Position numbers and translations under genes: made by a program
In this document: piece after piece, positions 2,091 to 54,450 of the stretch
Layout: each line of letters opens with the position of its first letter
Numbering within the stretch: position 1 is the stretch's first letter
The notes under the pieces: generated by a model
The model's database searches: none
What the model was told of the DNA's origin: nothing
The model's input: the letters and a program-made list of their open reading frames with translations, nothing else
DNA from: Bacillota bacterium
GTDB taxonomy: Bacteria; Bacillota; UBA994; UBA5500
Reading direction: 5' to 3'
NCBI GenBank assembly: GCA_023436245.1
Contig: JAEZJZ010000078.1
Coordinates: forward strand, 79,758-143,757
Length of the DNA: 64,000 nt

Positions 2091-2222
2091 TTGTTAGGCA
2101 AAGTGAAGAAGGTGTTTCCCGGCGGCAATACCGGCTTCGGTTTCTATTCCCTCTACGACAACATCGCTAGTTCGGACACTAATGCCATCTTTGTCCTCAA
2201 GGGTGGAGGCTTGAGCGCATAG
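2091..2222 (+). CDS. small hypothetical protein (43 aa), convergent with int
   Basis: TTG start preceded by AAGGGAGG with an 8-nt spacer. Sits inside the longer track ORF 1842..2222. Encodes ...KVKKVFPGGNTGFGFYSLYDNIASSDTNAIFVLKGGGLSA. Confidence 0.2.
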   Translation: MLGKVKKVFPGGNTGFGFYSLYDNIASSDTNAIFVLKGGGLSA

Positions 2223-2240: not shown

Positions 2241-3710
2241 TCACTCGATGCCAAGGATGTCGCCGGCGATGCGAACATCAACGACCTGTCGGTCACGGAT
2301 TACCACCGAGTCAATCAAGCCCCTAATAGCATTCTGAAGAACCGGCAGCTCGCCGTGCTCCCACAGCCAGAGTGCTTGCTTCGCTTCCTTCTGGATGGCG
2401 GCCGATATCTTTTCTACCTGTGGCGCCTGAGCGCGTGCTTTCTCCTCCGCGAGAAGCTGGCGCTCTTTTTCTATGCGCTCCCGGGCCAGGCGCAGGTCGT
2501 TATCCCCGATCAGGCCGTTCTCATAGGCGGCAATCTGCCTCTGGAAGCGCTGGTCTATGGCGGACTCGCGGCGTACGTACTCTGCTTCCTTGCTGGTCAT
2601 CGCCTGGCTCAGATCCTGGTCACTGACTGTTAGAGAGCCGTCGGCCAGTCGTTCCAGCGTCTGATAGACCGCAACCTCAGCGTCCTCATTCTGCACGTAG
2701 TTGAACCAGCAGCCTCCATTGTGGGCGTAGTTCCGGCAGACGAAGATGTCGCGCTGACTGACCTCAGTCTTCTTGTTTCCGTACTTGCGGGCGTTCATGC
2801 CACTTCCGCAATGTCCGCACACCAGCAGTCCACTGACCCTCATCTTCTTGGCCCGGTCCTTTCCTGTAGGCTTCGGCCTCTGCAGCTTCTTCTCGATAGC
2901 CGCCCATTGCTCCTCGGTGTAGATGGCAGGGTGAGCATCGTCACGGACAATCCATTCAGACTCGTCTCGCCACTGCATCTTGCCTTCCTTGTCGTAGTAT
3001 CTCCGGTTGTACACGAGCTGGCCGGCATAGATCTCATTGCAGATCAGACGGCGCACTGATGTATTGTGCCAGATGCCACCGGAGCGTGGCTTGCTTCCGG
3101 ACTCGTTCAGGGTTTTGGTGATTGCCCGGTACCCGTGGCCAGCGATGTACATATCGGCGATCTTTCGGACGAGTTCCGCTTCCTCAGGAACGATGACCAG
3201 TTGCTTGCTATCATCCAGCCGATAGCCAAAGGGTGCAAAGGACTGATATCGTTTCTTCTTGCTGGCCACCTCAAGCATGGTCGAGCGTACCCGCGTGGCA
3301 ATCATGGCGCGTTCAAACTCAGCGAACGCGGCCAAGATCTGCAGGACCATGCGGCCGATCGGCGTGCTTGTATCGAAGTTGAGGGCAGCACAAACGTAGG
3401 CCGTTTTATGCCTTTCGCACAGGTCAATGAACTGCAGCATGTCTAGCAGGTTGCGGGAGAGGCGGTCGACCGCAACGGTGGCCACGACAGCGACCTGACC
3501 TTGCTTGATCAGGCGCATCAGCTTCTGCATCTGAGGCCGATTCATGTCCTTAGCACTTTCACCTTCGTCGGCAAAGACCTGAACGTTCGCCCAACCCTGG
3601 AACTTGGCGTAGGCGCTGAGCTTGTCTATCTGGGCCTCAATCGAATAGCCTTCCCGGGCTTGATCATCAGTGGAGACGCGAACGTATATGGCGCTAACCC
3701 TATTCACCAT
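2241..3710 (-). CDS. int: large serine recombinase (prophage integrase)
   Basis: MVNRVSAIYVRVSTDDQAREGYSIEAQ is a resolvase-type catalytic N-terminus. Recombinase and zinc-ribbon regions follow (CGHCGSGM...CRNYAHNGGC), then a coiled coil. Start refined to ATG at 3710, with GGAGGTG SD 5 nt upstream. Confidence 0.85.
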   Translation of the reverse strand: MVNRVSAIYVRVSTDDQAREGYSIEAQIDKLSAYAKFQGWANVQVFADEGESAKDMNRPQMQKLMRLIKQGQVAVVATVAVDRLSRNLLDMLQFIDLCERHKTAYVCAALNFDTSTPIGRMVLQILAAFAEFERAMIATRVRSTMLEVASKKKRYQSFAPFGYRLDDSKQLVIVPEEAELVRKIADMYIAGHGYRAITKTLNESGSKPRSGGIWHNTSVRRLICNEIYAGQLVYNRRYYDKEGKMQWRDESEWIVRDDAHPAIYTEEQWAAIEKKLQRPKPTGKDRAKKMRVSGLLVCGHCGSGMNARKYGNKKTEVSQRDIFVCRNYAHNGGCWFNYVQNEDAEVAVYQTLERLADGSLTVSDQDLSQAMTSKEAEYVRRESAIDQRFQRQIAAYENGLIGDNDLRLARERIEKERQLLAEEKARAQAPQVEKISAAIQKEAKQALWLWEHGELPVLQNAIRGLIDSVVIRDRQVVDVRIAGDILGIE

Positions 3711-3940
3711 GAGAGCACCTCCGTGGCGAGTCCAATATCGGTTGGGGATGTGGTTGGTTACCGCGGGTACACATGCCAGCAAGAGAGCTCAAGTGGGGCG
3801 GGAGACCTAGGACTCTCTTCTTCTCTTAGCCTCCCTAACATCCTTATGATAAACCCACTCTGAAGGGGCCATGGGCATTTGAAATCAGCGTTTTGCCAAT
3901 AAATGGCCAGCCAATGATCGGCTGGCCATTTCGGATTATC

Positions 3941-4786
3941 TCAATTGAAAACAGACTGGATGAACCCGCTCCATGTCTGGTATGCTGCGACGAGTCCTGT
4001 AGCAGTTGTGATTCCGGAGACTACCGCCTTACCCGCCTTAAGGAGAGTCTCAATCAGGGTCTTTCGAGGCTGCTCTTCATTAAGTTGGCTAATGACCTCT
4101 TTAACGATGCCGGTCAACTCTTCTTGCTTCTCCTTGTCGAGTTCTGACTCCATCGCTCGGTAGAGCTCGTCGGTATACTTCTTAATCTCCTGAACATGCG
4201 AACCGAAGTTCACTACATTATCTGCTCCTACCACAAATTGACTATCCTTTGCCTCGATTTTCATCTGCGAGAAGTCGTTCTTGGCCACGTGGACATCTCC
4301 CTTCACGTTGAATATTACCACGCTGTTTCCAAGGTCCGCGATTTTCGCCATGTTCTCGGGCGAGAATTTTAGATCAGCTAATGGAATCTCAGCGACGGCT
4401 TTTTTTTTTGCCATGCTCAGGATGTAAGGATCCGTGCTCCATAAGGCTGTTCGATACTGAGTGTCAGCGTAAAAAACTGGAAATATCATGTTCGACGTGA
4501 CCTCGTATTCTTCCCCACAAAGATCACACCGAACTGGTGCCAAGGATTCCGGAAGGGTGTCGAGAACCGCCAAAGAACGACTGCAACCGTACTCTGGGCA
4601 GCGAACCTCCCAACGTAGCCTAAGTTGTCTAATTTTCGCCAAATCCAGCAATCGACTGAACACAGGTTCATATGACAGTTCAAGAGTCTTCGAGATGAAT
4701 GTTGGGTAGAACCTCTTCACTGGGAGCTGGAGTAGAGTGCCTACCAATGTGTCAACCCTTGCGTCAATCTCATGTTGTTCGGCCAC
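3941..4786 (-). CDS. hypothetical protein with CxxC...CxxC zinc ribbon (cassette gene B)
   Basis: GTG start at 4786, 9 nt after an AGGAG SD that lies at the stop of the upstream gene. Contains RCPEYGCSRS...CDLCGEEYE. C-terminal half is rich in V-x-G-x-V beta-strand repeats. AT-richer than surroundings. Confidence 0.45.
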   Translation of the reverse strand: MAEQHEIDARVDTLVGTLLQLPVKRFYPTFISKTLELSYEPVFSRLLDLAKIRQLRLRWEVRCPEYGCSRSLAVLDTLPESLAPVRCDLCGEEYEVTSNMIFPVFYADTQYRTALWSTDPYILSMAKKKAVAEIPLADLKFSPENMAKIADLGNSVVIFNVKGDVHVAKNDFSQMKIEAKDSQFVVGADNVVNFGSHVQEIKKYTDELYRAMESELDKEKQEELTGIVKEVISQLNEEQPRKTLIETLLKAGKAVVSGITTATGLVAAYQTWSGFIQSVFN

Positions 4787-4800
4787 GCTCAATCACTCCT

Positions 4801-5889
4801 TCAGGGCAGCAAGCGCTCCCTCACGTATTCTATCACAGACTCAGTAGCGGGAGTCATGAAGAAAACGGAATCGGACTGAAGTCCAACCCTTATCGTATAG
4901 GTATGCGTTACCCGATTGTCGGCATGCTCAAACTGAATGAACCCACCGGTTTGCGACAGGAATGGTCGCAGAGAGTCATAAAGCGGGAGACCCCTAAGGT
5001 CCCTTCCGGATACACCCATGCCCACCTTCTCTAAACCAGCAAGAATCAGTGCCGTGAAACCCAGTGCTACATGCCCCGGACTTAGGTTTTGCATGGCAGC
5101 AGTTAGTTCCCGCCCTAGCAGTTCTATTTCCGGATTCCGAAAATAGGTATCTACGGCGTTCAAAATGTTCAGTACCGCGCTTCTTTGCTCGTCTCCAAAT
5201 TCCTCTAGCAACAACTCAGGTGTACACATAGTATCAATGAGTTCACCGCTCAGGGCGTCGGCGATCCGTGAAGCATCTCTATCATATAGCGCACAAAAGG
5301 GAATCGGATCTACAACGACCGTGTCTCCAACAAGCGCTGTTACCGTACTCGCGATTCGTTCTGCAAACTTAGGTTCGCATCGCGTTTCGATGATTCCTTT
5401 TTGCTCATCAACGTACGCCGTAATTATACTTGTTCGCGGACGTCGCTCCATTTCAGTGCCGTTAAAGACCCTAGACACACCGGTCCTCAGCATGAGTCGT
5501 AAGTAGTACTTTGAATCATCTCCGTTTGTTCCCGCAGTCATTAGGACTGGTGTGGATGTCAGCTCGTTCGCGCTGCAATTACGGATTCGCGCAAACGGGT
5601 CAAACCCCGCATTCTGGGTAATCCTAGCCCTCGCGCCTTCTAGTGAGCAACCGTTTGCGGGTCTAAACCATGCGACAGACGTACGGCCCGCAAGTAGCCT
5701 TTCTCTGCCTGTTCCCAGCACGACATTTCTAAGCACCTGATTGTCCCTTACCTGTTCCCAGATCTCATTGGCCAGATCCGTGACCGAACCAGCGTCCGGG
5801 ATACCCAGGTCCGTGCACATCTGTTGAAGCACTTCCTTAGGAAGTCTCACGACATCGGTGATGAATGACGAGTTTTGGATATTGAGCAT
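4801..5889 (-). CDS. hypothetical protein (cassette gene A), no recognisable domain
   Basis: ATG at 5889 preceded by GGAGG with an 8-nt spacer. 362 aa. Stop lies 14 nt from the gene B start, suggesting an operon. Confidence 0.45.
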   Translation of the reverse strand: MLNIQNSSFITDVVRLPKEVLQQMCTDLGIPDAGSVTDLANEIWEQVRDNQVLRNVVLGTGRERLLAGRTSVAWFRPANGCSLEGARARITQNAGFDPFARIRNCSANELTSTPVLMTAGTNGDDSKYYLRLMLRTGVSRVFNGTEMERRPRTSIITAYVDEQKGIIETRCEPKFAERIASTVTALVGDTVVVDPIPFCALYDRDASRIADALSGELIDTMCTPELLLEEFGDEQRSAVLNILNAVDTYFRNPEIELLGRELTAAMQNLSPGHVALGFTALILAGLEKVGMGVSGRDLRGLPLYDSLRPFLSQTGGFIQFEHADNRVTHTYTIRVGLQSDSVFFMTPATESVIEYVRERLLP

Positions 5890-6109
5890 TTGACAAACCT
5901 CCAATCATCAGCGCATCATGGTCGGCAGTGTATCGCACAAGGACGAGGGCAGCGGTCCAGGTGCGTGGAGCATGCGCATTGTCACATTTCTTCACGCCTC
6001 GGCAGATTCCTCCAAGAATAGGCAAGAAAATGCCTCGTTTTGGCAGGACTCCAGGGATTCCTGGCAGAACGATAAGACCATATGTCAGGATGGCGGGAGG
6101 TGTCAGATA

Positions 6110-7165
6110 GTGAAGCAGGAGTTCGCTACGGTGCTTGAAGGCTATTTGCAGGCCAAACAGGAGGAGTTCACGTCACACACGATGGCTCACCACCTAAGGA
6201 CGGTCTTGCCCGAAGTGCTAATGAGTGAGCTTGACCTGTCTGTGTACACGAGCGATGGGTCGAGTGGAAATGGTCGATGGGTGAAAGTCCCTTGGGTCAG
6301 TGCGTTCCACAAGAGCGTCACCGTCACGGCGCAGAGGGGCTACTATGTCGTCTATCTGTTCGCCGAGGATATGAGCGGTCTGTACATATCACTTAACCAG
6401 GGCTGGACGGATTTCGAAGACAAGTATGGTCGGAGTGAAGGAAGAAAGCAAATCCGCCGATCGGCATTGGCTTTGAGAGCACTCGTAGGGCCGCATCTCA
6501 GACGGCTTGTGGCTGACGAAATCGACTTGGCACGAAAGGGGAGGCTCGCTCTTGGCTATATGGCCGGCCACGTATGCGGAGCCTATTACCCCGCCTCCTG
6601 CATTCCTTCCGAGGAAGAGCTGCGTGCCGACCTTGTCGAGATTCTTTCCCTGTATAATCGGCTAGTGGCAGTGCTCGGAAAAGATTCATGGGTCGAGAAG
6701 GCAGCTCGGCTTGCAGAATCTCAGACCGCAATCGCTGATGACGAACAGGATGAGGGTGACTTCCAGAAGAGGGTTGGACGGAGCCTTCCTACCCAGTCGA
6801 CGCCTGGGCCCAGACCGCGGCAGGAGCCAAAGCATACGAACCGCGGCCCCGTCTGGCCGCGCGACCCCTCAATCGCGCGGGAGGCTTTGATTAGGGCTGA
6901 GTATCGGTGCGAGGTGGATCCCCAGCACATTACCTTTATCTCGGCGGTGACAGGGCAGAACTATGTGGAAGCTCATCACCTGATCCCGATGAGTAGGCAG
7001 GGAGAGTGTGATAACAGCCTTGATGTAGTGGCAAACATCGTGGCGCTGTGTCCGACCTGTCACCGCAAGATTCACTTTGCCGACAAAGACGTATCCAATG
7101 CAATGACATGCGCCCTTGTCGAAGCCAGGCGGAGTAGGCTGGAGGACTACGGAATCCATTCATAA
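6110..7165 (+). CDS. DUF3578 (McrB N-terminal-like) plus HNH endonuclease; putative modification-dependent (type IV-like) restriction enzyme
   Basis: GRWVKVPWVSAFHKSVTVTAQRGYYVVYLFAEDMSGLYISLNQGW matches the DUF3578 core. C-terminal HHLIPMS...CPTCHRKIH is an HNH motif. GTG at 6110 with GGAGG 13 nt upstream. Confidence 0.6.
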   Translation: MKQEFATVLEGYLQAKQEEFTSHTMAHHLRTVLPEVLMSELDLSVYTSDGSSGNGRWVKVPWVSAFHKSVTVTAQRGYYVVYLFAEDMSGLYISLNQGWTDFEDKYGRSEGRKQIRRSALALRALVGPHLRRLVADEIDLARKGRLALGYMAGHVCGAYYPASCIPSEEELRADLVEILSLYNRLVAVLGKDSWVEKAARLAESQTAIADDEQDEGDFQKRVGRSLPTQSTPGPRPRQEPKHTNRGPVWPRDPSIAREALIRAEYRCEVDPQHITFISAVTGQNYVEAHHLIPMSRQGECDNSLDVVANIVALCPTCHRKIHFADKDVSNAMTCALVEARRSRLEDYGIHS

Positions 7166-7285
7166 TATGGTGCGAGCCTCCCGGTGAACTGTAGGATTTC
7201 ACCGGAGGCTCGCAGTCTCGTTACGGTCAGTAATCTTATCCTGCAGTAACACAAGCGCAGCGCCCAACAGTGCTAAGGATATCCA

Positions 7286-8488
7286 TCAGGCGTAGTGAGC
7301 AACGTGACCAGTATCCCAGTCTATTCGAATAAAGCGAACAGCGACATTAGCGTTTGCTCCTGCATCCACGCGGTGACCGGACGCTCCAAAGTCCCGCAGC
7401 ACTTCTGTGCTGAAGATGCCGGAGTATGCTCTATCCCTACCCATGATTGCGGCGCATCTCAGACCGGCGAGGCAACTGGCAATGGCCATTTCTCCCCCAG
7501 AGTGCGGGCAGTTGGGTTTGAAATGCCCCGTAGCGCTGCCGTGGTGGGACACGCAATAGTAACTGCACCGAGGAAGGTAATGATGGCAATCATGGAACTC
7601 TGCCCATCCTTCGCGCTCAAGATCGCCAGGAAGTATCATCGTCCTGCGTTCTGAGCCAAACATCAGAACCGTAGACGAGTTGTTCACTTGGCTAACTATC
7701 CGATATGGCTGGCAGTACGCAGACGTCTTCGGCGATGTTCTCAGAGTTCGTAGAGAGGGGTGCAGCACAGCGGCAAAAGAACCGCTGTTTCCAGCTATGG
7801 GCTCAACGAACTTAAGATTCTGAGCTCGTGCGGAATTGTACAGGCGCATAAGTATGGTATTATACGACGGCATAGCCCACGAGTAGTGCATATTAGCCCA
7901 TATCTCCGAGTTCTCAAGGTAGCCATTGTCCAGCAAGTACCCGATCCCGTTGAAATGGTCAAAATGTGGGTGCGTCAGGAAGAAGCGAGAAACGGAGAAC
8001 TCACCAAGAGCGAAGTCGGCCATTATCGTCTGAATACATGAGGCAAGGTTATTGCGATAGTGCTGATGATTGAGAAAGTCATATGTGGAACAATCTACCA
8101 TGACAATCTCGAGATCCATACCGGTTTCACGAACTATAATGCTGCAGTTTCCGTGTCCGACATTAACGTGGTACGAACAGACTTGACCGCGGCCCCGAGC
8201 AAAAGGAGACGGGGCTTCAGATCGTGATTCTAGCAGACTTCTGAACTTGTTGTTTAGCATCAGCGCTGCTTTTGCCTCGCCTTCGCCTCCCGCACTCCGA
8301 AACTCTCCATTGGCAAGCCTAACAAAGCTTCCTTCTCGGAGCCCACGAGTGACCTTTGCCTCGAACCCTTCCGAAAACAAGCCTTCTCCCTCAAGTGTGT
8401 ACCCTTGGTTTGATACCCTCTCCAGCTCAACTGATACTCGACCATCAGTCACTGGCTGGACTCCATGAACGAAAAGAACACCCGACAC
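7286..8488 (-). CDS. MBL-fold metallo-hydrolase with N-terminal extension
   Basis: FLTHPHFDHFNG is the HxHxDH metallo-beta-lactamase motif, with downstream His and Cys residues. GTG start, so the N-terminal boundary is uncertain. Confidence 0.55.
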   Translation of the reverse strand: MSGVLFVHGVQPVTDGRVSVELERVSNQGYTLEGEGLFSEGFEAKVTRGLREGSFVRLANGEFRSAGGEGEAKAALMLNNKFRSLLESRSEAPSPFARGRGQVCSYHVNVGHGNCSIIVRETGMDLEIVMVDCSTYDFLNHQHYRNNLASCIQTIMADFALGEFSVSRFFLTHPHFDHFNGIGYLLDNGYLENSEIWANMHYSWAMPSYNTILMRLYNSARAQNLKFVEPIAGNSGSFAAVLHPSLRTLRTSPKTSAYCQPYRIVSQVNNSSTVLMFGSERRTMILPGDLEREGWAEFHDCHHYLPRCSYYCVSHHGSATGHFKPNCPHSGGEMAIASCLAGLRCAAIMGRDRAYSGIFSTEVLRDFGASGHRVDAGANANVAVRFIRIDWDTGHVAHYA

Positions 8489-13535: not shown

Positions 13536-14330
13536 CTACTCCATTCTGGACATGCCTTTGCTTACCTTCGCAAACATCCTGATCATGTGCCCAACCTCGC
13601 CGCCATCCAGACCAAACTGGGTGGCGATTTCTATTGTCTCCGCCCATGCCTGGTCTGTCGCGGTCTTACTCGTCAGCAACGCCTTGTACTCCTGATATGG
13701 CGGCGCGTCTTTCAGCACGCCGACCAGGTGACCGATGATGCGATGTTTTCCGGTGACAGGCATGTCCGCATACTCAGGGTTTGCCGCGCGGAGAACAGCC
13801 AGTCCATTCTCACGGATGAAGTACTTGAGGGTGGCAGCCCAAGTGTCATCCTCGACGCCGGCTGCAACGACCATTCCGCTCTGGGCTTCCGTAGCTTGGC
13901 GGAGAACGGCGGTGTCCCCCTCGTGGATCCCGGCCCAGCTCATGCTATCGCCTGAGACGTGCAGTGCGAAGTCTGCGCGCCAGTCTGACGGGATCTCGAC
14001 TTCGCCCTCGAAGTTCTCCTCGGCCAGGACAGGGATGCCGGCTTTGATGGTACCGATGAGGGGAACCACCCGCGGTTGCCCAAGAGCTTGAGAGCTTCGG
14101 GGTAGATTGAGTATCTGAGAAATAGGCCTAGGTTCGTCAGTAGAACCAACGAGATAGTCCATGGTCACCCCGAAGTACTCGGCAAGCTTCTGAAGTGTCT
14201 TGACATCAGGTTGTCGACGACCAGACTCATACGCCGTATACGCAGGTCTGGTGATTCCCAGATGACTCGATAGATCATCTTGAGTTTTCCCTGCCTGTTT
14301 TCTGAGGTAGGACAGTCTACTAGCCAGCAT
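13536..14330 (-). CDS. cI: CI-like phage repressor (XRE HTH plus S24 LexA-like peptidase) with about 60 aa C-terminal extension
   Basis: N-terminal HTH (LASRLSYLRKQAGKTQDDLSSHLGITRPAYTAYESG). GDSM motif present (VSGDSMSWAGIHEGD), and KHRIIG consistent with the catalytic Lys. ATG at 14330 with GGGGGTGG SD. Confidence 0.8.
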   Translation of the reverse strand: MLASRLSYLRKQAGKTQDDLSSHLGITRPAYTAYESGRRQPDVKTLQKLAEYFGVTMDYLVGSTDEPRPISQILNLPRSSQALGQPRVVPLIGTIKAGIPVLAEENFEGEVEIPSDWRADFALHVSGDSMSWAGIHEGDTAVLRQATEAQSGMVVAAGVEDDTWAATLKYFIRENGLAVLRAANPEYADMPVTGKHRIIGHLVGVLKDAPPYQEYKALLTSKTATDQAWAETIEIATQFGLDGGEVGHMIRMFAKVSKGMSRME

Positions 14331-14389
14331 CTCGAGCCACCCCCTTCGCATGACTAACTAATTTTTACTGTAGCTGATTGTTACACAAA

Positions 14390-17106: not shown

Positions 17107-17302
17107 ACTTGACCGGTTTTCCCAAGGCGGAAGAGATGCACAGACTGAGCAGCCAGTGGCTTACTGCGCCGGCTGCGGTGGAGAGATCTACGCACAAGAC
17201 GATGTGTACCTGCTAGGCAGCGAGGTACTGCATGCCGACAAAGACTGCCTGCTGATGTACACGAACCCAATTAGAAGCCAGGCGTGGGAGGTGGCGGTGT
17301 GA
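17099..17302 (+). CDS. small hypothetical protein (CAGCGG motif)
   Basis: ATG after AAAGGAGG. Confidence 0.35.
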   Translation: MPRLDRFSQGGRDAQTEQPVAYCAGCGGEIYAQDDVYLLGSEVLHADKDCLLMYTNPIRSQAWEVAV

Positions 17303-18234
17303 GCGCGGCCATACTCACCAGCACACTTCGCATGGAGCGAGAGGATTGGCTCGAAGCGAGGCGACTTGGCGTCGGCGGCAGTGACGCTGCCGCCATCGCT
17401 GGGCTGAGCAAATGGCGCAGTCCGATGGCGGTCTACCTCGACAAGATAGGTGCCCTGGAACCAGAGGAGGCAAGCGAGGCAGCCCATTGGGGCACAAAGC
17501 TGGAGGACCTGGTAGCCAAGGAGTTCGCGGAGAGGACCGGCTTCAAGGTGCAGCGCCGGAATGCGATTCTGCAGCATAAGGACTACCCGTTCATGCTGGC
17601 CAACATCGACCGGTTCGTGTTTACCGCGGAGGGCAGAGGCATTCTGGAGTGCAAGACAACCAGCGCCTACAACGCAGATGCCTGGGCTGATAACCGAGTT
17701 CCTGATGAGTACATGCTGCAGGTGCAGCACTATCTGGCCGTCACCGGCCTGCAGTTCGGCTACATCGCGGTCCTGATCGGCGGCCAGCGCTACCTACATA
17801 AGCGTGTCGAGCGCGATGAAGAGATCATCAGCTACCTGGTTCAGATAGAGTCAGACTTCTGGCGATTGGTGGAGGGGAAGACACCTCCCGAAATGGATGG
17901 CAGCGAATCGAGTGCCGAAGTGTTGGCGCTGCTCTATCCCGAGAGTGACCCTGGGAGCAGCCTCAATCTCCCTGACACGGCTGAGCAGCTGATTGCCGAG
18001 TATGAGGAGGCCCAGGCCGCTGAGAAGGCGGCAGAAGCGCGCAAGAACGAGGCTGCTAACAAGCTGAAGGCCCTGCTCGGAGAGTACGAGACCGGCACGG
18101 TTGGTGAGCGCCGCGTGAGCTGGAAATCCGTCACGAGCAGCCGATTGGACACAAAGGAGCTAAAGGCGGCTCACCCGAGCATCTATGCACAGTTCTCAAG
18201 AGAGAGCGCCAGTCGGCGCTTCACCATCAAATAG
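17299..18234 (+). CDS. YqaJ-like viral recombinase-domain exonuclease
   Basis: WLEARRLGVGGSDAAAIAG...ILECKTTS shows PD-(D/E)XK YqaJ features. Start could be GTG 17299 or ATG 17332. Confidence 0.7.
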   Translation: MSAAILTSTLRMEREDWLEARRLGVGGSDAAAIAGLSKWRSPMAVYLDKIGALEPEEASEAAHWGTKLEDLVAKEFAERTGFKVQRRNAILQHKDYPFMLANIDRFVFTAEGRGILECKTTSAYNADAWADNRVPDEYMLQVQHYLAVTGLQFGYIAVLIGGQRYLHKRVERDEEIISYLVQIESDFWRLVEGKTPPEMDGSESSAEVLALLYPESDPGSSLNLPDTAEQLIAEYEEAQAAEKAAEARKNEAANKLKALLGEYETGTVGERRVSWKSVTSSRLDTKELKAAHPSIYAQFSRESASRRFTIK

Positions 18235-18247
18235 GAGGGATATCACG

Positions 18248-19147
18248 ATGACGAGAGCATCGAACAATCAGCCCGACTTGAAGGACAGGCTCGCCCAGCG
18301 TGCCAGTAGTGTGGCTACGGCCGAGAAGCCAAAGAGCCCTGCGGATACCGTTGCAGCTTACCTCAAGAAGATGGGACCAGAGATCGCTAAGGCCCTACCC
18401 AAGCACATGGACGCTGATCGGCTTGCCCGTGTGGCACTGACCACGATTCGCACTAACCCGACGCTTCTACAGTGCAACGTCCCGAGCCTCCTGGCTGGGG
18501 TGATGCAGGCGGCACAGCTCGGGCTCGAGCCGGGGCTGCTCGGTCACTGCTACCTGATTCCCTTCCGGAACAACAAGGCCAACACCATGGACGTGCAGTT
18601 CATTATCGGCTACCGCGGCATGATTGACCTGGCCAGGCGTTCCGGCAACATCGAGACCATCTATGCGCACGAGGTGTGCGAGAAGGACGAGTTCGAGTTG
18701 GAGTATGGCCTGGACCAGCGCCTGAAGCATAAGCCCGCCACCGGTGAGCGTGGCGAGGTAATGGGTGTGTACGGCGTGGCCAAGTTCAAGGATGGCGGCT
18801 ACTACTTCGAGTATCTGCCGAAGGCCGAGATTGAGAAGCGCCGTGGTCGCTCCAAAGCAGCCGGCAGTGGCCCTTGGGTCACCGACTGGCTGGAGATGGC
18901 CAAGAAGACTGTCATCCGCCACATGTTCAAATACCTGCCGATTAGCGTTGAAGTGATGACCGGAGTGACCCAGGACGAGACGGCCAAACGAGAGATCTCC
19001 GAGGACATGAACGAGGTGCCGGATACCATCGACATCACGCCGATCTACGGCGAGCAGGAGTCCGAAACGGCTTCGCCAGTTGCCCAGGGGAAAAGCCCGG
19101 CACCCGCCGAGGAGATGTTCGTCCCTTTCGACCCACAAGGGCGTTAG
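18248..19147 (+). CDS. recT: RecT-family single-strand annealing protein
   Basis: ATG after AGGAGGG. Sequence LQCNVPSLLAGVMQAAQLGLEPG...GYRGMIDLARRSG matches the RecT family. Confidence 0.8.
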   Translation: MTRASNNQPDLKDRLAQRASSVATAEKPKSPADTVAAYLKKMGPEIAKALPKHMDADRLARVALTTIRTNPTLLQCNVPSLLAGVMQAAQLGLEPGLLGHCYLIPFRNNKANTMDVQFIIGYRGMIDLARRSGNIETIYAHEVCEKDEFELEYGLDQRLKHKPATGERGEVMGVYGVAKFKDGGYYFEYLPKAEIEKRRGRSKAAGSGPWVTDWLEMAKKTVIRHMFKYLPISVEVMTGVTQDETAKREISEDMNEVPDTIDITPIYGEQESETASPVAQGKSPAPAEEMFVPFDPQGR

Positions 19148-19252
19148 CGTCCTCCCAGATTACGAGCGATTGAGAACAGTACAGGGCTGCCCGCCGAGGG
19201 CGGCCCATTAACCTAACCTAGACCATAGACCTTGGGGGAGGCGGATGCACAC

Positions 19253-20278
19253 ATGGCTAGACCGGCTAAAGCAACAGTGGACTACTTCCCGCATTACGTG
19301 GCTGCAGGGAGGACTCTTTACATACTAGAGAACACCTTCGGTAATGACGGCTACGCGTTCTGGTTCAAGCTGCTGGAGGTCCTGGGAGATACAGAGGGCC
19401 ACGCATATGACTGCAATGCCACCGGCGCCTTTGAGTACCTGTGTGCCAAGGCCAGGGTTGGCGAGGAAACGGCCAATCAGATCCTTGACCTGCTGGCTAA
19501 GCTGAAGGCCATCGATGCTGAGCTCTGGGATTACCGCATCATCTGGGTGCAGCGCCTGGTGGACAACATTGCGGACGCTTACCGCAAGCGGAAGTGCGCT
19601 GTTCCGTGCCGCCCCGCGATTCCGCGGGAGAAACTCGACTTTGAAGAGGTTTCTGACGCCGGAAACCCGACCAATCTGCAATCTGCTGGCATTTCCGGCG
19701 TCGGAAATCCGCAAACCAAACTAAACCAAACTAAACCAAAGGAGACTATACCCCCCTTACCCCCCACAGAGGGCGACAGTTCTTCGGAGCAGCCGGCCCC
19801 GCCAGAGGAGGGGTGTGTGGGTGGGAAGCCCTCGCCATTGTCTGCTGTTCTCCTAGAGTTCACGCGTTACGGTCCTGTGGCACAGGAGAGTCTGCGGGAC
19901 TATTGGGCAATGATCGCCGAGTCGAAGCCCAGGGGGCTTTCCCCGAAGGCCGTGGGACGAATGATGCAGCGCTGGGAACAGCATTCGGCGGACGTGGTGA
20001 TCGAGGCGGTGGAACTCCACTTGCGCAAGTACCAGGACAAGAACGAGGAATACACGGACGGGATAGTCGCCCGCCTGGCCAGGGAACGGGCCTCGGGTGT
20101 TATTCAGCCTATCTCCGACCGCAGGCAGCGACGGAGAAGCCGGCCGAGCCACGGCGACGCGCCATCTGGCCCCAGTCCTTGGGACGACATTAGGCTCTAC
20201 AAGACGCACCTTCCTGGCGGGAAGGACTACGCTGGCAACCAAGGGGAAGGGGGGACGGCCAATGCCGGCACAGCATAA
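19253..20278 (+). CDS. phage replication initiation protein (DUF4373/Lin1244-like N-terminal domain)
   Basis: ATG after GGGGGAGG. N-terminus VDYFPHYVAAGRTLYILENTFGNDGYAFWFKLLEVLG. Internal iterons present. Confidence 0.6.
   Translation: MARPAKATVDYFPHYVAAGRTLYILENTFGNDGYAFWFKLLEVLGDTEGHAYDCNATGAFEYLCAKARVGEETANQILDLLAKLKAIDAELWDYRIIWVQRLVDNIADAYRKRKCAVPCRPAIPREKLDFEEVSDAGNPTNLQSAGISGVGNPQTKLNQTKPKETIPPLPPTEGDSSSEQPAPPEEGCVGGKPSPLSAVLLEFTRYGPVAQESLRDYWAMIAESKPRGLSPKAVGRMMQRWEQHSADVVIEAVELHLRKYQDKNEEYTDGIVARLARERASGVIQPISDRRQRRRSRPSHGDAPSGPSPWDDIRLYKTHLPGGKDYAGNQGEGGTANAGTA
19650..19745. repeat. candidate phage origin: inverted repeat plus three AAACCAAACT iterons inside the rep gene
   Basis: GACGCCGGAAA and TTTCCGGCGTC inverted repeat, with ATTTCCG/CGGAAAT around it. 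Three direct repeats of AAACCAAACT follow. Confidence 0.45.
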
Positions 20279-20430: not shown

Positions 20431-21201
20431 GTGTCTGAAAAGGTTCGGGCTGCAGATATCATCGTTGCGCTCGCAAAGAAGCACGAGAAGCGGGATCTGT
20501 TCTTCACGGAGGTTTGCGCAGGCGGCGCAAGTAACGGCCGCCGGTTGGATGCTGTTGCCGTCATGCCAAGCTGGAAAGATCGGCGGGTCTGTGGCTATGA
20601 GGTCAAAGTCAGCCGGTCGGACTTTCTGAGGGACGACAAGTGGCCGGCATATCTGTCAGTCTGTCACCAGTTCTCCTTCGCCTGCCCTGCCGGGTTGATA
20701 GCAAAGGAGGAGCTCAACGACAACATTGGGCTGCTCTATTACTACCCCGAGTCAGGTGCACTAAAGACGATTCGGAAACCGGTCTACAGGGAGGATTGTG
20801 ACCCGATTGACGTCGTCTGGAGCATCCTGATCAACCGGGTGGAGGACTCCGGGAGTCAGATCAGTGCCCGACTTAGGACTGTGGAGAGGCTGAGGGGCTA
20901 CGTGAAGGATGGCAGTGACCTGAGAAACTTGGGGCACATGCTGGGCACCGTGATGGCCAGGCGGGTTTCTGGACTGGAGAACGAGCTAAGCGACGCAAAG
21001 TGGGAGATCACAAACCTCCAGAGAGAGAACAACAGGCTCAGTGACCTGGTGCGAAGGCTGACGCGCGATACGGCGCAGACCCTGACCAGTACCCAGGCAG
21101 CGAGAGAGCTAGAGCGCATTGTCGGGCTCTCTGAGCGTGTATCGGCGATGGCGAAAGACCTCGCTGGTCGGGTTGGCCATACGGAGGTGGCGGGGCAATG
21201 A
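20431..21201 (+). CDS. hypothetical phage protein (N-terminal globular region; possible nuclease fold, unverified) with C-terminal coiled coil
   Basis: GTG 6 nt after GGAGGTGG. The acidic/basic pattern AVAVMPSWKDRRVCGYEVKVSRSDF may suggest a PD-(D/E)XK fold. Confidence 0.35.
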   Translation: MSEKVRAADIIVALAKKHEKRDLFFTEVCAGGASNGRRLDAVAVMPSWKDRRVCGYEVKVSRSDFLRDDKWPAYLSVCHQFSFACPAGLIAKEELNDNIGLLYYYPESGALKTIRKPVYREDCDPIDVVWSILINRVEDSGSQISARLRTVERLRGYVKDGSDLRNLGHMLGTVMARRVSGLENELSDAKWEITNLQRENNRLSDLVRRLTRDTAQTLTSTQAARELERIVGLSERVSAMAKDLAGRVGHTEVAGQ

Positions 21202-21614
21202 GTGACCGCCAAAACAACACAACCAGAACCGGCCTCGGTCATCTCATCGCCTTCACTGTGCCTGGCCGCCCCGTTCCCGCCGTCCGCATGACCCAGCGGG
21301 GCAAGTGGGTCAAGGAGAACGCCAAGCGCTACCTGGCATACAAGGACAGTGTCGGTTGGTCTGCAAAGGCGGTTCACTGGGGCCTGATTAGGGGCCTCGT
21401 GAGAGTTGAGATACACCTGTACCTGACGAACGACAAGCCCATCGGCGACGTGGACAACTACGCCAAGGCAATTCTTGATGGCCTTAACGGCGTTGTGTGG
21501 GTGGACGACACCCAGGTGGCTCAGCTACACGTATACCGGCACATGGCGGCGCCTCAGAGGGCTGAGGTGCAGGTCCGGGAACTGAATGCAGAGGAGGTGG
21601 CCGCTGTGGGGTAG
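21198..21614 (+). CDS. rusA: RusA-family Holliday junction resolvase
   Basis: DVDNYAKAILDGLNGVVWVDDTQV is the RusA catalytic motif. Start overlaps the upstream stop (ATGA). Confidence 0.8.
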   Translation: MSDRQNNTTRTGLGHLIAFTVPGRPVPAVRMTQRGKWVKENAKRYLAYKDSVGWSAKAVHWGLIRGLVRVEIHLYLTNDKPIGDVDNYAKAILDGLNGVVWVDDTQVAQLHVYRHMAAPQRAEVQVRELNAEEVAAVG

Positions 21615-24153: not shown

Positions 24154-24843
24154 TTAGCGACGACGGTCCGGTAGGAACCACTTGAGTAGAGAGCTTCCAA
24201 CGCTTTCTTGCAGCATATCATTGACAGAGTTATCTACCCTGAGAACGATATTATTGATGAAGCCGAGATAAGCAATAACGTATGGCTTGGTTATAGTTCC
24301 CTCAGGAATATCAGTTCGATGTGCAATCGCGCAACGGTCGGTCACGTAATCGTCCAGCCTGCTCCTTGCTTTGTCTCGACTCATGTTTTTCCAGTGCCAT
24401 GTACTCGTAATATCGTCAATGGCTAGCAGCTCCCGAAAAAGCGCCTGGACATTATCGGTTCTTGGTGTATTGAAGCCAGAAATCCTCTTCCCGATGACTT
24501 CATGACGGTAATCGCTCAAGACTTGCTTCCACCCGTCGCCGGCTAGTTGCCACAGCCTTCTATGATCTTCATCCTTCTTGAGAACCGCACTGGCAGCAGC
24601 CCTAATCTTCACTGGGATTTGCTTGTGGCTGGTGCTCTTCTTCAGAAGGAACTCATATGCCTCGGTGCAGATGTCCTCAACGTAGGCCTCCCAGCAAGCT
24701 GTAATCAGAACCACAGCACTTCTATTAAGCACACTTAGGTCAAAACGTCGACCTCGCTTCGTTCCGCCTTGTTCTGAATGAATTCGCATCAGGGCGTCAA
24801 TATCGGAGCTATTTGCTTTGAAGCTCTCATAGGCCAATGACAT
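24154..24843 (-). CDS. HEPN-family (RiboL-PSP/MAE_28990-like) protein; putative abortive-infection RNase moron
   Basis: Rx4H motif RCAIAH. N-terminal AVVLITACWEAYVEDI pattern. Own AGAGGAG SD. Opposite strand to the late operon and lower GC. Confidence 0.45.
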   Translation of the reverse strand: MSLAYESFKANSSDIDALMRIHSEQGGTKRGRRFDLSVLNRSAVVLITACWEAYVEDICTEAYEFLLKKSTSHKQIPVKIRAAASAVLKKDEDHRRLWQLAGDGWKQVLSDYRHEVIGKRISGFNTPRTDNVQALFRELLAIDDITSTWHWKNMSRDKARSRLDDYVTDRCAIAHRTDIPEGTITKPYVIAYLGFINNIVLRVDNSVNDMLQESVGSSLLKWFLPDRRR

Positions 24844-25011
24844 ACACAGCGACTCCTCTCGCTCCTAACTTGGCTCAACCGTATTATATTCTCTATCCTA
24901 TCCCTATATTTTAGCAAGCGATATAGTTGGAGATCTCGCAGCAGAGGCAATGCTTGCTGCCACAGCATAGTAGTCTCTTTGCCGCACCATTCGCGTTGGG
25001 GGGTGGCCAGA

Positions 25012-25512
25012 ATGGCCAAACTGACGGCCAGGCAAGAACGCTTCGTGGAGGAATACCTGATAGACCTTAACGCAACTCAAGCCGCAATCAGGGCTGGCTA
25101 CAGCGTGAAGACAGCAAATGAGCAGGGGTCTCGACTGTTGTCAAATGTTAGTGTTCGCGCGCGCATAGACGAGGCCTTGGCCGAGCGCTCCCGGCGTACT
25201 GGCATCAACCAGGACCGGGTATTGCGCGAGCTCGCCCGGCTTGCCTTCGTTAACGCTCCGGACCTGATCAACGTCACCGACGCGACGCTCCTAGAGGATG
25301 CCTCGCCCGACGACACCGCAGCCATCGCCTCGGTCAAGGTCAAACGCCGTGCAACCGATGACGGCGATGAGGTCGAGCGAGAGATCCGCCTAGCTGACAA
25401 ACTCAAGGCCTTGGAGCTCCTCGGCAAGCATCTCGGAATGTTCACCGATCGGCTGGCCGTGGACATCACCGGCGTCAAGATCGTAGATGACATCGGTGGC
25501 GAGAAAGCGTGA
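25012..25512 (+). CDS. terS: terminase small subunit (P27/Terminase_2 family)
   Basis: LTARQERFVEEYLIDLNATQAAIRAGYS. Confidence 0.7.
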   Translation: MAKLTARQERFVEEYLIDLNATQAAIRAGYSVKTANEQGSRLLSNVSVRARIDEALAERSRRTGINQDRVLRELARLAFVNAPDLINVTDATLLEDASPDDTAAIASVKVKRRATDDGDEVEREIRLADKLKALELLGKHLGMFTDRLAVDITGVKIVDDIGGEKA

Positions 25513-26780
25513 AGCAGGTTAGCCTGAGCAACCTCATCGCTCCCAGCTTCCACGACCTACATCAGGACATCAAGCAGGGCCTGCATACCCACCATTGGCT
25601 GAAGGGCGGACGCGGCAGCACCAAGAGTTCATTTGTCAGTCTGGAGATCATCTTGGGTATGATGAAGCACCCCGAGGCTAACGCGGTCGCGCTGCGCAAG
25701 GTCGGCGTCAACCTCAAGGACAGCGTCTATGAGCAGTTGCAGTGGGCGATTCAGGCTCTAGGGGTGGACCAGTACTGGGACTCGAAGTTAAGCCCTCTTG
25801 AACTCATCTACAGGCCGACTGGGCAGCGCATCATCTTTCGCGGCGCCGACCGCCCGAAGAAGATCAAATCGACCAAGTTCCGTAGAGGATATGCCAGATA
25901 CATCTGGTATGAGGAAGTGGACGAGTTCGGCGGACCAGAAGAGATCCGTATGATCAACCAGTCGCTGATGCGCGGTGGTGAGCAGTTCACAGTTTTCTAC
26001 TCGTACAACCCGCCGCAGAGCCAGCGCAACTGGGTGAACACCGAAGTCCTCGATGAGAGGCCGGACCGCGTGGTCCACCATAGCACTTACCTGACTGTTC
26101 CCCGGTATTGGCTGGGCGAACAGTTTTTTGTTGAGGCGGAGCACCTGAAGGCGACCAAGCCCGAGAAGTACGAGCATGAGTACATGGGCAAGGTCACCGG
26201 TACCGGAGGCGAGGTGTTCACCAACCTGACCATCCGCAAGATTACCGATGAGGAGATTGCCGGTTTTGACCGCATTCACCGCGGATTGGACTTCGGCTAC
26301 GCAGAAGACCCACTCCACTACACAGTCAATCACTACGACCGAAAGCGCCGACGGCTCTACATCTTCTTCGAGATCCACGCAACGAGGCTGAAGAACAGCC
26401 TGGCAGTGGCGCAAATCAAGAGGGAGAACGCAGGCAATCGAACAGTGGTAGCAGACAGCGCCGAGCCGCGGACCATCAATGAGTTCCGCGAGCTCGGCCT
26501 TAACATTCTGCCGGCGAAGAAGGGCCCGGACAGCGTGGAGCACGGCATCAAGTTCCTGCAGGACATGGAGGAGATCGTAATCGATCTGGAGCGCTGCCCG
26601 AACACGGCCCGGGAGTTCATCGGTTACGAACTTGAGAAGGACAGAGAGGGCAACTTCCGGTCGGACTATCCGGATAGAGACAACCACAGCATCGACGCGA
26701 CCAGGTACAGCCTGGAGCACGAGATGCGAAATGCCCGGGCGAAGGTCGGTACCAAGAAATCGGCGTTGGGGGTGAGGTAA
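25509..26780 (+). CDS. terL: terminase large subunit (PBSX XtmB-like)
   Basis: Walker A GGRGSTKS. C-terminal nuclease region. Start overlaps terS (GTGA). Confidence 0.85.
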   Translation: MKQVSLSNLIAPSFHDLHQDIKQGLHTHHWLKGGRGSTKSSFVSLEIILGMMKHPEANAVALRKVGVNLKDSVYEQLQWAIQALGVDQYWDSKLSPLELIYRPTGQRIIFRGADRPKKIKSTKFRRGYARYIWYEEVDEFGGPEEIRMINQSLMRGGEQFTVFYSYNPPQSQRNWVNTEVLDERPDRVVHHSTYLTVPRYWLGEQFFVEAEHLKATKPEKYEHEYMGKVTGTGGEVFTNLTIRKITDEEIAGFDRIHRGLDFGYAEDPLHYTVNHYDRKRRRLYIFFEIHATRLKNSLAVAQIKRENAGNRTVVADSAEPRTINEFRELGLNILPAKKGPDSVEHGIKFLQDMEEIVIDLERCPNTAREFIGYELEKDREGNFRSDYPDRDNHSIDATRYSLEHEMRNARAKVGTKKSALGVR

Positions 26781-43169: not shown

Positions 43170-43487
43170 ATGGGGATGGAGTGGGACACAGTTCTGCCCG
43201 CACTGATTGCTGCGGCCGCGGCTGTCAGTGGCATGGTGCTCGGCTGGACAGCCAGGGCAAGGGACACACGACATGAGATCCGTGCAGACGCCGGGTCAAG
43301 CGCAGCCCTGCGCTCTGATGTTGAGTACATCAAGCGTGGAGTGGATGACCTTCGCCTAGACATTAAGGACCAGGGAAGGCGCTTCGATGAACTGGCTGAG
43401 CGCGTGACGCGGGTGGAGGAGTCGAGCAAGCAGGCGCACAAGCGAATTGACCGATTGGATGGTGTTGACCGTGGCGCTGACGACTAG
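43170..43487 (+). CDS. putative holin (single TM plus coiled coil)
   Basis: N-terminal TM VLPALIAAAAAVSGMVLGW. Immediately upstream of the endolysin. Confidence 0.4.
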   Translation: MGMEWDTVLPALIAAAAAVSGMVLGWTARARDTRHEIRADAGSSAALRSDVEYIKRGVDDLRLDIKDQGRRFDELAERVTRVEESSKQAHKRIDRLDGVDRGADD

Positions 43488-44718
43488 GCAACAGTTCATT
43501 ACCAGCAGAAACCGACCAGGCACCAGAATCACGCCGACGAGCGTCACTGTTCACAACACCGCCACGCCAAACGCCACAGCACAGAACGAACGAGACTTTC
43601 TGCAGACCCACCCGGATGCGAAGGTCTCGTTCCATTTTGCCGTGGATGATGCTGAGGCCGTGCAATGTCTGCCACTGGATGAGATGTCCTGGCACGCCGG
43701 CAGCCGGGCTAACCGACAGAGTATGAGCATCGAAGTCTGCGAGTTCGACGACCGGGAGCGCCAGACGATGGCCAACCGCAATGCGGCTGAGCTGGTCTCC
43801 CAATTGCTCGCTCAGTTTGGATGGGGGCTGGAGCAGGTCAAGACACACAAGGACTGGACCGGCAAGGAGTGTCCGCGGAAGCTACTACCGATGTGGGATG
43901 AGTTCCTGTTGATGATTGCGAGAGGGGGAGAAGAGATGAGATTCAAGGATGTTCCTGCTACCCACTGGGCGGCGGGAGCGATTGAGCAGGCGGTGAGCCA
44001 GGGCTGGGTGGGTGGCTTCACGGATGGCACGTTCCGGCCGGAGGAACCGGTTACCCGGGCGCAGGCGGTATCCATGGTCGGCCGGGCGACAGTCTACATG
44101 GCCAATCGGCTGCAGGCCCTGATCGCCAAGTGCAAGCCGGCGGTAGTCAAAGTGACCAGCCGATCCGCCGCAGGCACCGTCCTTGGTGCCGGCAGCATCA
44201 TCACGACTGATGGCTACATCCTCACCAACGAGCATGTGGTTAAGGACCGGCAGGCTGGGCAGTTCTACCCTGACCTACAGGTGCACATCGTGACTGACCC
44301 AGAGCTCTACGAGGTAACCAAGGCATACCCGGCCACGGTCGTCGCCACGAGTAACTGGGATGACCTGGCGCTCCTCAAGGTGGACCTGAAGGGGCTGCCC
44401 ATCCTGCCGTTGGCCAGCAAGACGCCGCCAGAGGGTACAGCAGTGGTAGCAGTGGGGCATCCGTCCGGAATGCAGTATACCAGCAGCGCCGGCGTTGTGA
44501 CTCAAGACATGGCTGTAATCGGCGGGATGATCACGGTGATGCAAACTGATGCAGCCATCAACCCTGGTAACAGTGGTGGCCCGATCGTGGATCTTGGCGG
44601 TCGCATGGTGGCCGTGGCCGTGTCTAAGCTGCAGGACTTGGACAATGTTGCGTTTGGTGTGCGCATCGAAGACGTGCGTAACTTCGTGGCCAAGCATCTG
44701 CCTAACCTAGTTAAGTAA
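43447..44718 (+). CDS. endolysin: N-acetylmuramoyl-L-alanine amidase plus SLH domain plus trypsin-like (S1) peptidase domain
   Basis: Amidase_2 N-terminus (ITPTSVTVHNTA...SFHFAVDD). SLH (FKDVPATHWAAGAIEQAVSQGWVGGFTDGTFRPEEPVTRAQ). Serine protease GNSGGP plus His/Asp. Confidence 0.75.
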   Translation: MTDWMVLTVALTTRQQFITSRNRPGTRITPTSVTVHNTATPNATAQNERDFLQTHPDAKVSFHFAVDDAEAVQCLPLDEMSWHAGSRANRQSMSIEVCEFDDRERQTMANRNAAELVSQLLAQFGWGLEQVKTHKDWTGKECPRKLLPMWDEFLLMIARGGEEMRFKDVPATHWAAGAIEQAVSQGWVGGFTDGTFRPEEPVTRAQAVSMVGRATVYMANRLQALIAKCKPAVVKVTSRSAAGTVLGAGSIITTDGYILTNEHVVKDRQAGQFYPDLQVHIVTDPELYEVTKAYPATVVATSNWDDLALLKVDLKGLPILPLASKTPPEGTAVVAVGHPSGMQYTSSAGVVTQDMAVIGGMITVMQTDAAINPGNSGGPIVDLGGRMVAVAVSKLQDLDNVAFGVRIEDVRNFVAKHLPNLVK

Positions 44719-44756: not shown

Positions 44757-45122
44757 ATGACAACTCAGCACGTGTTGCATATCGCGTGGGAGTGGCGTTA
44801 CCCCCTGGTGGTTGCGCTGCTGACCATCATCTACCTCGTGTTGAACTGGCAGCGGGCCTGGACCAAGCTCAAGGAGATCACACCTCAGCTGATGCTGCTG
44901 GCGCAGAAGCGAGCCAAAGAGCTCCTCCTGGCCTCCGGGGAGGCTCGCATGGCCTGGGTTGTGCAGTACATTATGACCACCGTCTTGCCGGCGTTTCCTG
45001 CATGGCTTCGCCCCTGGTTCACCGAGCAACGAGTCCGCGCATTTGCGCAATGGGTATTTGATACATCACTTGATCTACTGGACGACGGTCAGCTCAACGG
45101 CTCGGCCGACGTGAGCGCATAA
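44757..45122 (+). CDS. membrane protein (holin-like/lysis accessory)
   Basis: TM segments YPLVVALLTIIYLVL and VVQYIMTTVLPAFPAWL. Last gene before a strong terminator. Confidence 0.35.
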   Translation: MTTQHVLHIAWEWRYPLVVALLTIIYLVLNWQRAWTKLKEITPQLMLLAQKRAKELLLASGEARMAWVVQYIMTTVLPAFPAWLRPWFTEQRVRAFAQWVFDTSLDLLDDGQLNGSADVSA

Positions 45123-49643: not shown

Positions 49644-49903
49644 CACTGCCAGAACCATTTAGCCGAAACCACCTACTCGGAGACAGGCCTCTGAGCAGCA
49701 TAAGAGGATCTCCAAGCAGAGTCGCAAATGAGATAGAATAGACAACAACTAGATACACTTGTCGCCGCCTTACGGTGCGCAAGGGGTAGTCGGTTGGGAA
49801 GGTGGCATTATTCCAGAGGGCCCGCATCCACCGGCACCTTCACTCTTGGAATGCGCAAGCTCGGCGGAACAAGTAATGGCTGATGCCAGAAAAGAGGAGA
49901 AGC

Positions 49904-53160: not shown

Positions 53161-53290
53161 CGGACGCTCGGTTGACGATCGATACACCAGCGAGGCCACG
53201 GAGCCTGCTGAACTGATACCTAGACATGATCGCAGAGCGAATCTCCAATCATTGGGCACATCCTGAGAATCTTTGGGAGGCTGATTCCTC

Positions 53291-54331: not shown

Positions 54332-54450
54332 TACCGCTGCTCGCTCTAGTATACTGAGCGAAGTGACTCGCAATCGACTCGATAGGGGTGAAGACTGCAG
54401 ATTGACCTAGATGGGCAGAGCCAGAGCTGCTCGCTGGAGGATTGAGGAAC

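Follow-up and report, generated by a model that had tools for sequence, protein, structure and literature searches.

What is the role of a phage-borne protein that joins the DNA-reading domain of McrB directly to an HNH nuclease? The question is raised by the gene at 6110-7165 of a 64,000-nucleotide stretch from a Bacillota bacterium (contig JAEZJZ010000078.1, positions 79,758 to 143,757), here called the window, in which a prophage extends roughly from 2.2 to 45.1 kb. The gene encodes 351 amino acids (aa), identical at 100% to the database protein P0001. We consider it likely that the product is a stand-alone, nucleoside triphosphate-independent and modification-dependent endonuclease, i.e., a type IV-like enzyme, whose gene is an autonomous piece of cargo (a "moron") in the genome of a temperate phage. 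The identities of the domains, the fold, the conservation of key residues, the missing partner genes and the location within a prophage were established.

The first-pass annotation, made from the letters alone, had read in the N-terminal half a DUF3578 core related to the modified-DNA-binding domain of McrB, and at the C-terminus an HNH motif. Both readings were borne out. The motifs VPW, YYVVYLF, SGLYISLNQGW, HHLIP and CPTCHRKIH were all present in the translation, and Pfam and profile searches returned DUF3578 (now MrcB_N) and HNH above their thresholds, with Pfam scores far beyond the chance level. In EcoKMcrBC, DUF3578 corresponds to the McrB-N domain (PMC3874153); it has been given the new name ADAM (PMC11090510). 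The match to MrcB_N (PF12102) had an E of 2.7e-49 and 167.7 bits against a cut-off of 25, and covered profile positions 2-182/183. A profile built from 37 family sequences and compared with solved structures found E. coli McrB-N (3ssc) at E 0.006, and hhalign with the McrB-N sequence paired residues 44-94 of the protein with McrB 31-79 (probability 90.6%, E 1.3e-6); the McrB-N query was confirmed by HMMER output for its residues 17-78 and by the residue numbers in PMC3424535. The AlphaFold2 (AF2) model of the whole protein was confident, with a predicted local distance difference test (pLDDT) score of 91.8, Foldseek comparisons were consistent with the domain assignments, and the reader domain has the three-dimensional fold of McrB-N.

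The C-terminal HNH domain was recognized at the sequence, profile and fold level. Pfam placed HNH (PF01844, E 3.6e-6, 27.4 against a threshold of 21.4) and HNH_2 (E 2.8e-5, 24.3 against 21) at residues 279-322. By phmmer, 118 C-terminal residues (208-325) were aligned with EcoKMcrA chain positions 158-269 (6ghc, E 2.3e-9), which comprise the HNH domain of that protein and the segment that leads up to it; the 37-sequence profile reached the same structure at E 1.6e-16 and ScoMcrA at E 1.9e-4. The catalytic residues H289, H290, N309, H318 and H322 are present, as are the zinc ligands C267-x5-H273 and C314-x2-C317, the first pair being replaced by a McrA-like CxxC in a minor subclade of relatives. 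Residues H289, H290, H318 and H322 correspond to H228, H229, H252 and H256 of EcoKMcrA, where alanine variants gave no cleavage products (PMC6182155), and are conserved at 98-100% among 233 relatives that carry both domains, the set to which all conservation figures refer. These residues bear on the idea that the protein mainly binds, blocks or silences DNA with little or no cleavage, or is a decaying remnant. A truncated EcoKMcrA from which the nuclease domain is missing retains partial restriction of methylated phage, and cleavage by EcoKMcrA in vitro is weak, as such a role would suggest, but here the catalytic and zinc residues are intact, the open reading frame (ORF) shows no truncation and the confidence of the model is high along its whole length, so we regard a non-cleaving role as highly improbable.

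The residues with which McrB-N reads its target could be traced by hidden Markov model and hhalign alignments. S38, G40, Y41, P48, W49, G62, Y64 and L68 of McrB correspond to S51, G53, N54, P61, W62, G77, Y79 and L83, respectively. In McrB-N, S38 and W49 act as a clamp on the phosphates of the nucleotide that is flipped out; 5-methylcytosine (5mC) is told from cytosine by van der Waals contacts of Y64 and L68; Y117 provides stacking for the flipped base; the Watson-Crick edge is read by residues 82-85, for the most part via backbone atoms; and purines are excluded from the pocket by size (PMC3424535, Sukackaite et al.). Conservation was 90% for S51, 93% for W62, 91% for Y79, 97% for L83, 84% for T100 and 99% for Y150, and the loop S94-LNQGW-T100 was conserved as well. 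Judged from sequence, S51, W62, Y79 and L83 would make up the pocket and clamp, with Y150 as a putative further member. Position 54 was variable (Q, K, A, N or E), in agreement with the report that Y41, which intercalates into DNA, is not conserved among homologues (PMC3424535).

The same architecture and chemistry might nevertheless be directed at another target, namely a hypermodified pyrimidine, N6-methyladenine (6mA), or a sequence or structure bound independently of modification. N-terminal domains of McrB homologues have repeatedly switched specificity, with YTH reading 6mA, EVE as another case and B3 binding unmodified sites; the counterpart of Y41 is N54, at a position variable in the family; and identity to E. 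coli McrB-N is low. A related prophage (L024 8001-13533, RecT 57% identical) carries a DUF3578-HNH gene directly after RusA, and an N6_N4 DNA methylase is encoded 3 kb downstream of it. Since the same phage encodes this methylase, the enzyme there must tolerate that methylation. Against another target stand the 84-98% conservation of Y79, L83, the clamp S51/W62 and the SLNQGxT loop, and the size of the McrB-N pocket, which is too small for purines. We therefore hold a different target to be unlikely, if worth keeping in view. There is also a slight chance that the protein reads a phage-type hypermodified pyrimidine, or that it is used offensively after induction against the cytosine-methylated DNA of a competitor or a new host.

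A modification-dependent endonuclease that acts alone is further suggested by what is missing around the gene. The protein contains no domain of the AAA+ GTPase, AAA_5 or COG1401 type, and a search near the gene gave neither McrC nor a DUF2357 or PD-(D/E)XK partner; a McrBC system was ruled out, as GTPase and McrC are both missing. No methyltransferase adjoins the gene either, the neighbours being two unknowns, a metallo-beta-lactamase-fold protein, a lipoprotein and the integrase. The sole DNA-methyltransferase catalytic motif in the window, NPPF at 51170, is 44 kb away and belongs to an N6_Mtase gene (49883-51688), one of a restriction-type cluster situated right of the prophage. A PCQ...ENV pair, typical of C5 methyltransferases, was not found in the window. 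Lacking GTPase, McrC and an adjacent methyltransferase, the protein is best read as a stand-alone type IV-like enzyme and not as McrBC. Two further candidates were rejected. Firstly, the protein is not a full-length EcoKMcrA orthologue, since its N-terminus is MrcB_N and not NEco, and the alignment with 6ghc is limited to residues 208-325. Secondly, a partnership with the flanking genes at 3941-5904 or 7286-8488 was ruled out, as none of these genes recurs beside the homologues.

From these data we infer base specificity, dimerisation, cleavage and a defence phenotype as follows. The McrB-N/ADAM domain would bind DNA and flip a modified cytosine (5mC, probably also 5-hydroxymethylcytosine or N4-methylcytosine) into a pocket formed by W62, Y79, L83 and probably Y150, in which Y79 and L83 would sense the methyl group. 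The helical linker would tether the McrA-type HNH domain, for which dimerisation of the kind seen in EcoKMcrA and TagI is probable, and the HNH pair would cut both strands near the modified site. In a lysogen, incoming phage or plasmid DNA with cytosine modifications would be destroyed, while the unmodified DNA of host and prophage would be spared.

Several observations weigh against this proposal. The protein and E. coli McrB-N share only about 12-16% identity, with a marginal profile match (E 0.006), and the equivalences of T85 with T100 and Y117 with Y150 are putative, extended by hand beyond the aligned block. EcoKMcrA itself depends on modification only moderately in vitro (PMC6182155). 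No NCBIfam model matched the protein, and PADLOC recognized the HNH half alone, as mREase_IV. Finally, no tested member of the MrcB_N-HNH family was found in the literature. With domains, key residues and the absence of partner genes on its side, the modification-dependent, type IV-like activity proposed in the first-pass annotation stands as a well-founded prediction, not as a demonstration.

The start of the gene was assigned to the GTG at 6110. The longest in-frame version of the ORF ending at 7165 starts at ATG 5918 (415 aa) and is the one used in the ENA annotation. The start of each of the 36 aligned homologues coincides with GTG 6110, and the Pfam match to MrcB_N begins at residue 8, equal to profile position 2. 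Because homologues and domain both begin there, GTG 6110 is taken as the right start and the ENA call as an over-extension. The strong Shine-Dalgarno sequence said at first reading to precede the GTG is indeed in place (Table 1). Two promoter-type consensus sites occur in the divergent intergenic region upstream, compared with 0.8 expected, which is weak evidence for the site at 5890-5919. Downstream, the stem-loop between the convergent genes has a folding energy of -32.2 kcal/mol (z -4.6; none of 200 shuffles was equally stable). It is without a T-tract and was not called by the intrinsic-terminator scan; we regard it as a probable bidirectional terminator. The gene lies inside the prophage as its own transcription unit, outside the core modules and with a promoter-like site and a flanking stem-loop, as is characteristic of a moron.

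The family proved to be sizeable. The word-indexed search gave at least 156, the nearest non-identical one at 52% identity and the others at 42% or less, and the exhaustive search of 1.84 billion cluster representatives gave 253 clusters (50% identity) at E <=1e-30. Their database names were "MrcB family domain-containing protein", "DUF3578 domain-containing protein" and "mcrA". That the gene is carried by a prophage, as had been supposed, is seen from its place between integrase and repressor and from its closest relative, the 52% homologue, which occupies the same slot of another prophage (L010), in the order serine integrase (minus strand), DUF3578-HNH (plus strand), KAP NTPase, helix-turn-helix (HTH) repressor, cro-like gene and Gam. 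In that locus (L010 2174-7634) the nuclease gene is overlapped at its 3' end by the gene of the KAP-family NTPase, and a Mg_chelatase_C fragment, perhaps a comM-like attachment gene that was disrupted, directly adjoins the serine integrase. Other homologues were solitary with unrelated neighbours, which included a Dnd cluster in one case, a nearby type I hsdR in another and a sugar operon in a third, and three were plasmid-borne. About 25 full-length relatives were found on IMG/VR viral contigs, several with RecT, TerL or S24-repressor homologues within 8 kb. No full-length relative was found among the deposited phage genomes of INPHARED or in BFVD, where the fold search gave generic HNH matches only.

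This distribution also bears on whether the protein could be an HNH endonuclease of the phage life cycle, engaged in terminase-associated packaging or homing instead of defence. HNH genes are common in phages, the PHROGs matches were to generic "HNH endonuclease" families, and some IMG/VR phages have their homologue placed between replication module and terminase. The position of the present gene, its HNH subtype and the distribution of its homologues nevertheless led us to reject a life-cycle function, for which we see only a very small probability. The reader domain also travels with other modules: MrcB_N-NOV_C/DUF3883 fusions are encoded by Vibrio and Listeria phages (L011 2884-4047 and L012 2986-4284), the gene of the Vibrio phage sitting between two serine recombinase genes. 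As NOV_C/DUF3883 replaces HNH in these fusions, the McrB-N reader is shuffled among nuclease modules on phages.

Table 1. Coordinates of the nuclease gene, its domains and signals, and the principal features of the prophage (positions in the window).
Feature	Position	Strand	Basis or remark
Coding sequence, McrB-N (MrcB_N/DUF3578/ADAM)-HNH fusion, 351 aa	6110-7165	+	One exact ORF including stop, GTG start
Reader domain, residues 8-186, McrB-N fold	6131-6667	+	Pfam, profile, fold comparison
Long helical linker, residues 194-224	6689-6781	+	AF2 secondary structure and pLDDT; low-confidence hinge 207-210
McrA-type HNH (beta-beta-alpha-Me) nuclease domain, residues ~248-325	6851-7084	+
Shine-Dalgarno GGGAGGTG	6095-6102	+	Sequence reading; GGAGG core ends 9 nt before GTG 6110
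Sigma-70-like promoter candidate (TTGACA, 18 nt spacer, CATCAT)	5890-5919	+	Consensus match only; divergent intergenic region upstream of nuclease gene
Strong stem-loop between convergent genes 6110-7165 (+) and 7286-8488 (-)	7169-7217	.	RNA fold
Candidate attachment (att) core TGAGCGCATA, left copy	2212-2221	+	20 nt outside integrase stop codon
Large serine recombinase (prophage integrase), left edge	2241-3782	-	Pfam Resolvase, Recombinase, Zn_ribbon_recom; phrog_95 E 8e-115
HTH and Peptidase_S24, CI/LexA-like prophage repressor	13536-14351	-
YqaJ and RecT	17284-19147
Replication protein (Lin1244_N)	19232-20278
RusA	21198-21614
TerS and TerL	24979-26780
Endolysin	43447-44718	+
Holin-like ORF	44757-45122		After endolysin
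Candidate att core TGAGCGCATA, right copy	45112-45121	+	At end of holin-like ORF

Within the prophage the nuclease gene is oriented opposite to the genes on either side, and the cargo region from integrase to repressor has a G+C content of 0.50-0.55, compared with 0.58-0.61 in the phage core. The window forms part of a 281-kb metagenome scaffold (ENA ERZ28596075), and genes of host type (DUF503, a methyltransferase, peptidases) lie to the left of the integrase. Both copies of the candidate att core overlap the last codons (...SA and stop) of a plus-strand ORF. About 0.9 shared 10-mers are expected by chance, so the pair is suggestive by position only and the borders of the prophage are not proven. 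A two-gene cassette lies between integrase and nuclease gene on the minus strand (3941-5904). Its 367-aa protein matched only phrog_38742, of unknown function (E 1.4e-30), and the C-terminus of its 283-aa protein matched the PADLOC candidate-defence family PDC-M14B (E 1e-8); the cassette may be a second cargo defence system. The gene convergent with the nuclease gene (7286-8488, minus strand) encodes a 400-aa, ComEC-C-like protein of the metallo-beta-lactamase fold with weak matches to PADLOC PDC-M48B, LmuA and phrog_392 (metal-dependent hydrolase). Immediately upstream of the gene for the small terminase, on the opposite (minus) strand of the prophage, 24154-24843 codes for a protein with a HEPN RiboL-PSP domain (E 2.5e-15). 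This gene resembles a further moron and may serve abortive infection or specify a toxin. Unusually, the endolysin is built of three parts, namely Amidase_2, an SLH domain and a peptidase of trypsin type (Trypsin_2). Right of the prophage, a defence-type cluster (47034-55446, plus strand) comprises a DEAD/ResIII helicase, a protein with HSDR_N and N6_Mtase, an S-subunit-like protein, a Mrr_cat restriction endonuclease and a RES-domain protein.

Since the modules are known, the prediction is a direct consequence of them and does not overturn current understanding. If active, the protein would be the first characterised coupling of a base-flipping McrB-N reader to an HNH nuclease without a GTP-driven motor, a candidate reagent, compact at 40 kDa, with which modified cytosines could be mapped, and a further case of a temperate phage giving its lysogen type IV restriction against phages with modified DNA, as does e14 with McrA. 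Position 54, the counterpart of the intercalating Y41, is N here and Q, K, A or E elsewhere; nature thus supplies a series in which the setting of sequence context by this reader family could be studied. Should the protein instead read a hypermodified pyrimidine or be used offensively, McrB-N-HNH proteins would form a distinct phage-disseminated class with a new specificity and possible use as an epigenetic reagent.

The architecture has been noticed before. In the work of Kanevskaya et al. (bioRxiv 2025; Nat Commun 2025, PMC12738770), ADAM is named as one of the sensor domains, binding methylated DNA, with which HNH is combined in modification-dependent restriction enzymes. Four of the five references given for that statement were covered here; they include TagI, EcoKMcrA, VcaM4I and the EVE/DCD domain survey of Bell et al., and none is a study of ADAM-HNH. 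Reviews and screens cover SRA-HNH, EVE-HNH, wH-HNH, RAMA-HNH and McrA, and McrB-N-HNH is not among them. As far as we found, the architecture is thus catalogued bioinformatically but without an experimentally tested member.

Compared with the systems that have been characterised, the protein combines familiar parts differently. In E. coli McrB (3SSC, 3SSD, 3SSE) the McrB-N domain is joined to an AAA+ GTPase, needs McrC and cuts after translocation, whereas here the reader is joined directly to HNH, GTPase and McrC are missing, and the intercalating Y41 is replaced by N54. EcoKMcrA (6GHC), located on the prophage-like element e14, uses an unrelated reader, NEco, which senses 5mC without flipping the base, while McrB-N flips it; moreover, the first half of its zinc site is CxxC and not C-x5-H. 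TagI (SRA-HNH) and VcaM4I (EVE-HNH) are likewise two-domain modification-dependent endonucleases, but their readers (SRA, EVE) are members of the PUA superfamily and do not have the McrB-N fold. The MrcB_N-NOV_C phage proteins share the phage-encoded reader and differ in the C-terminal module, NOV_C/DUF3883 in place of HNH. The same architecture as in the present protein is found in the ADAM-HNH clade of the HNH phylogeny of Kanevskaya et al. (PMC12738770), and we regard the protein as a divergent new member of this known kind of system, of modest novelty.
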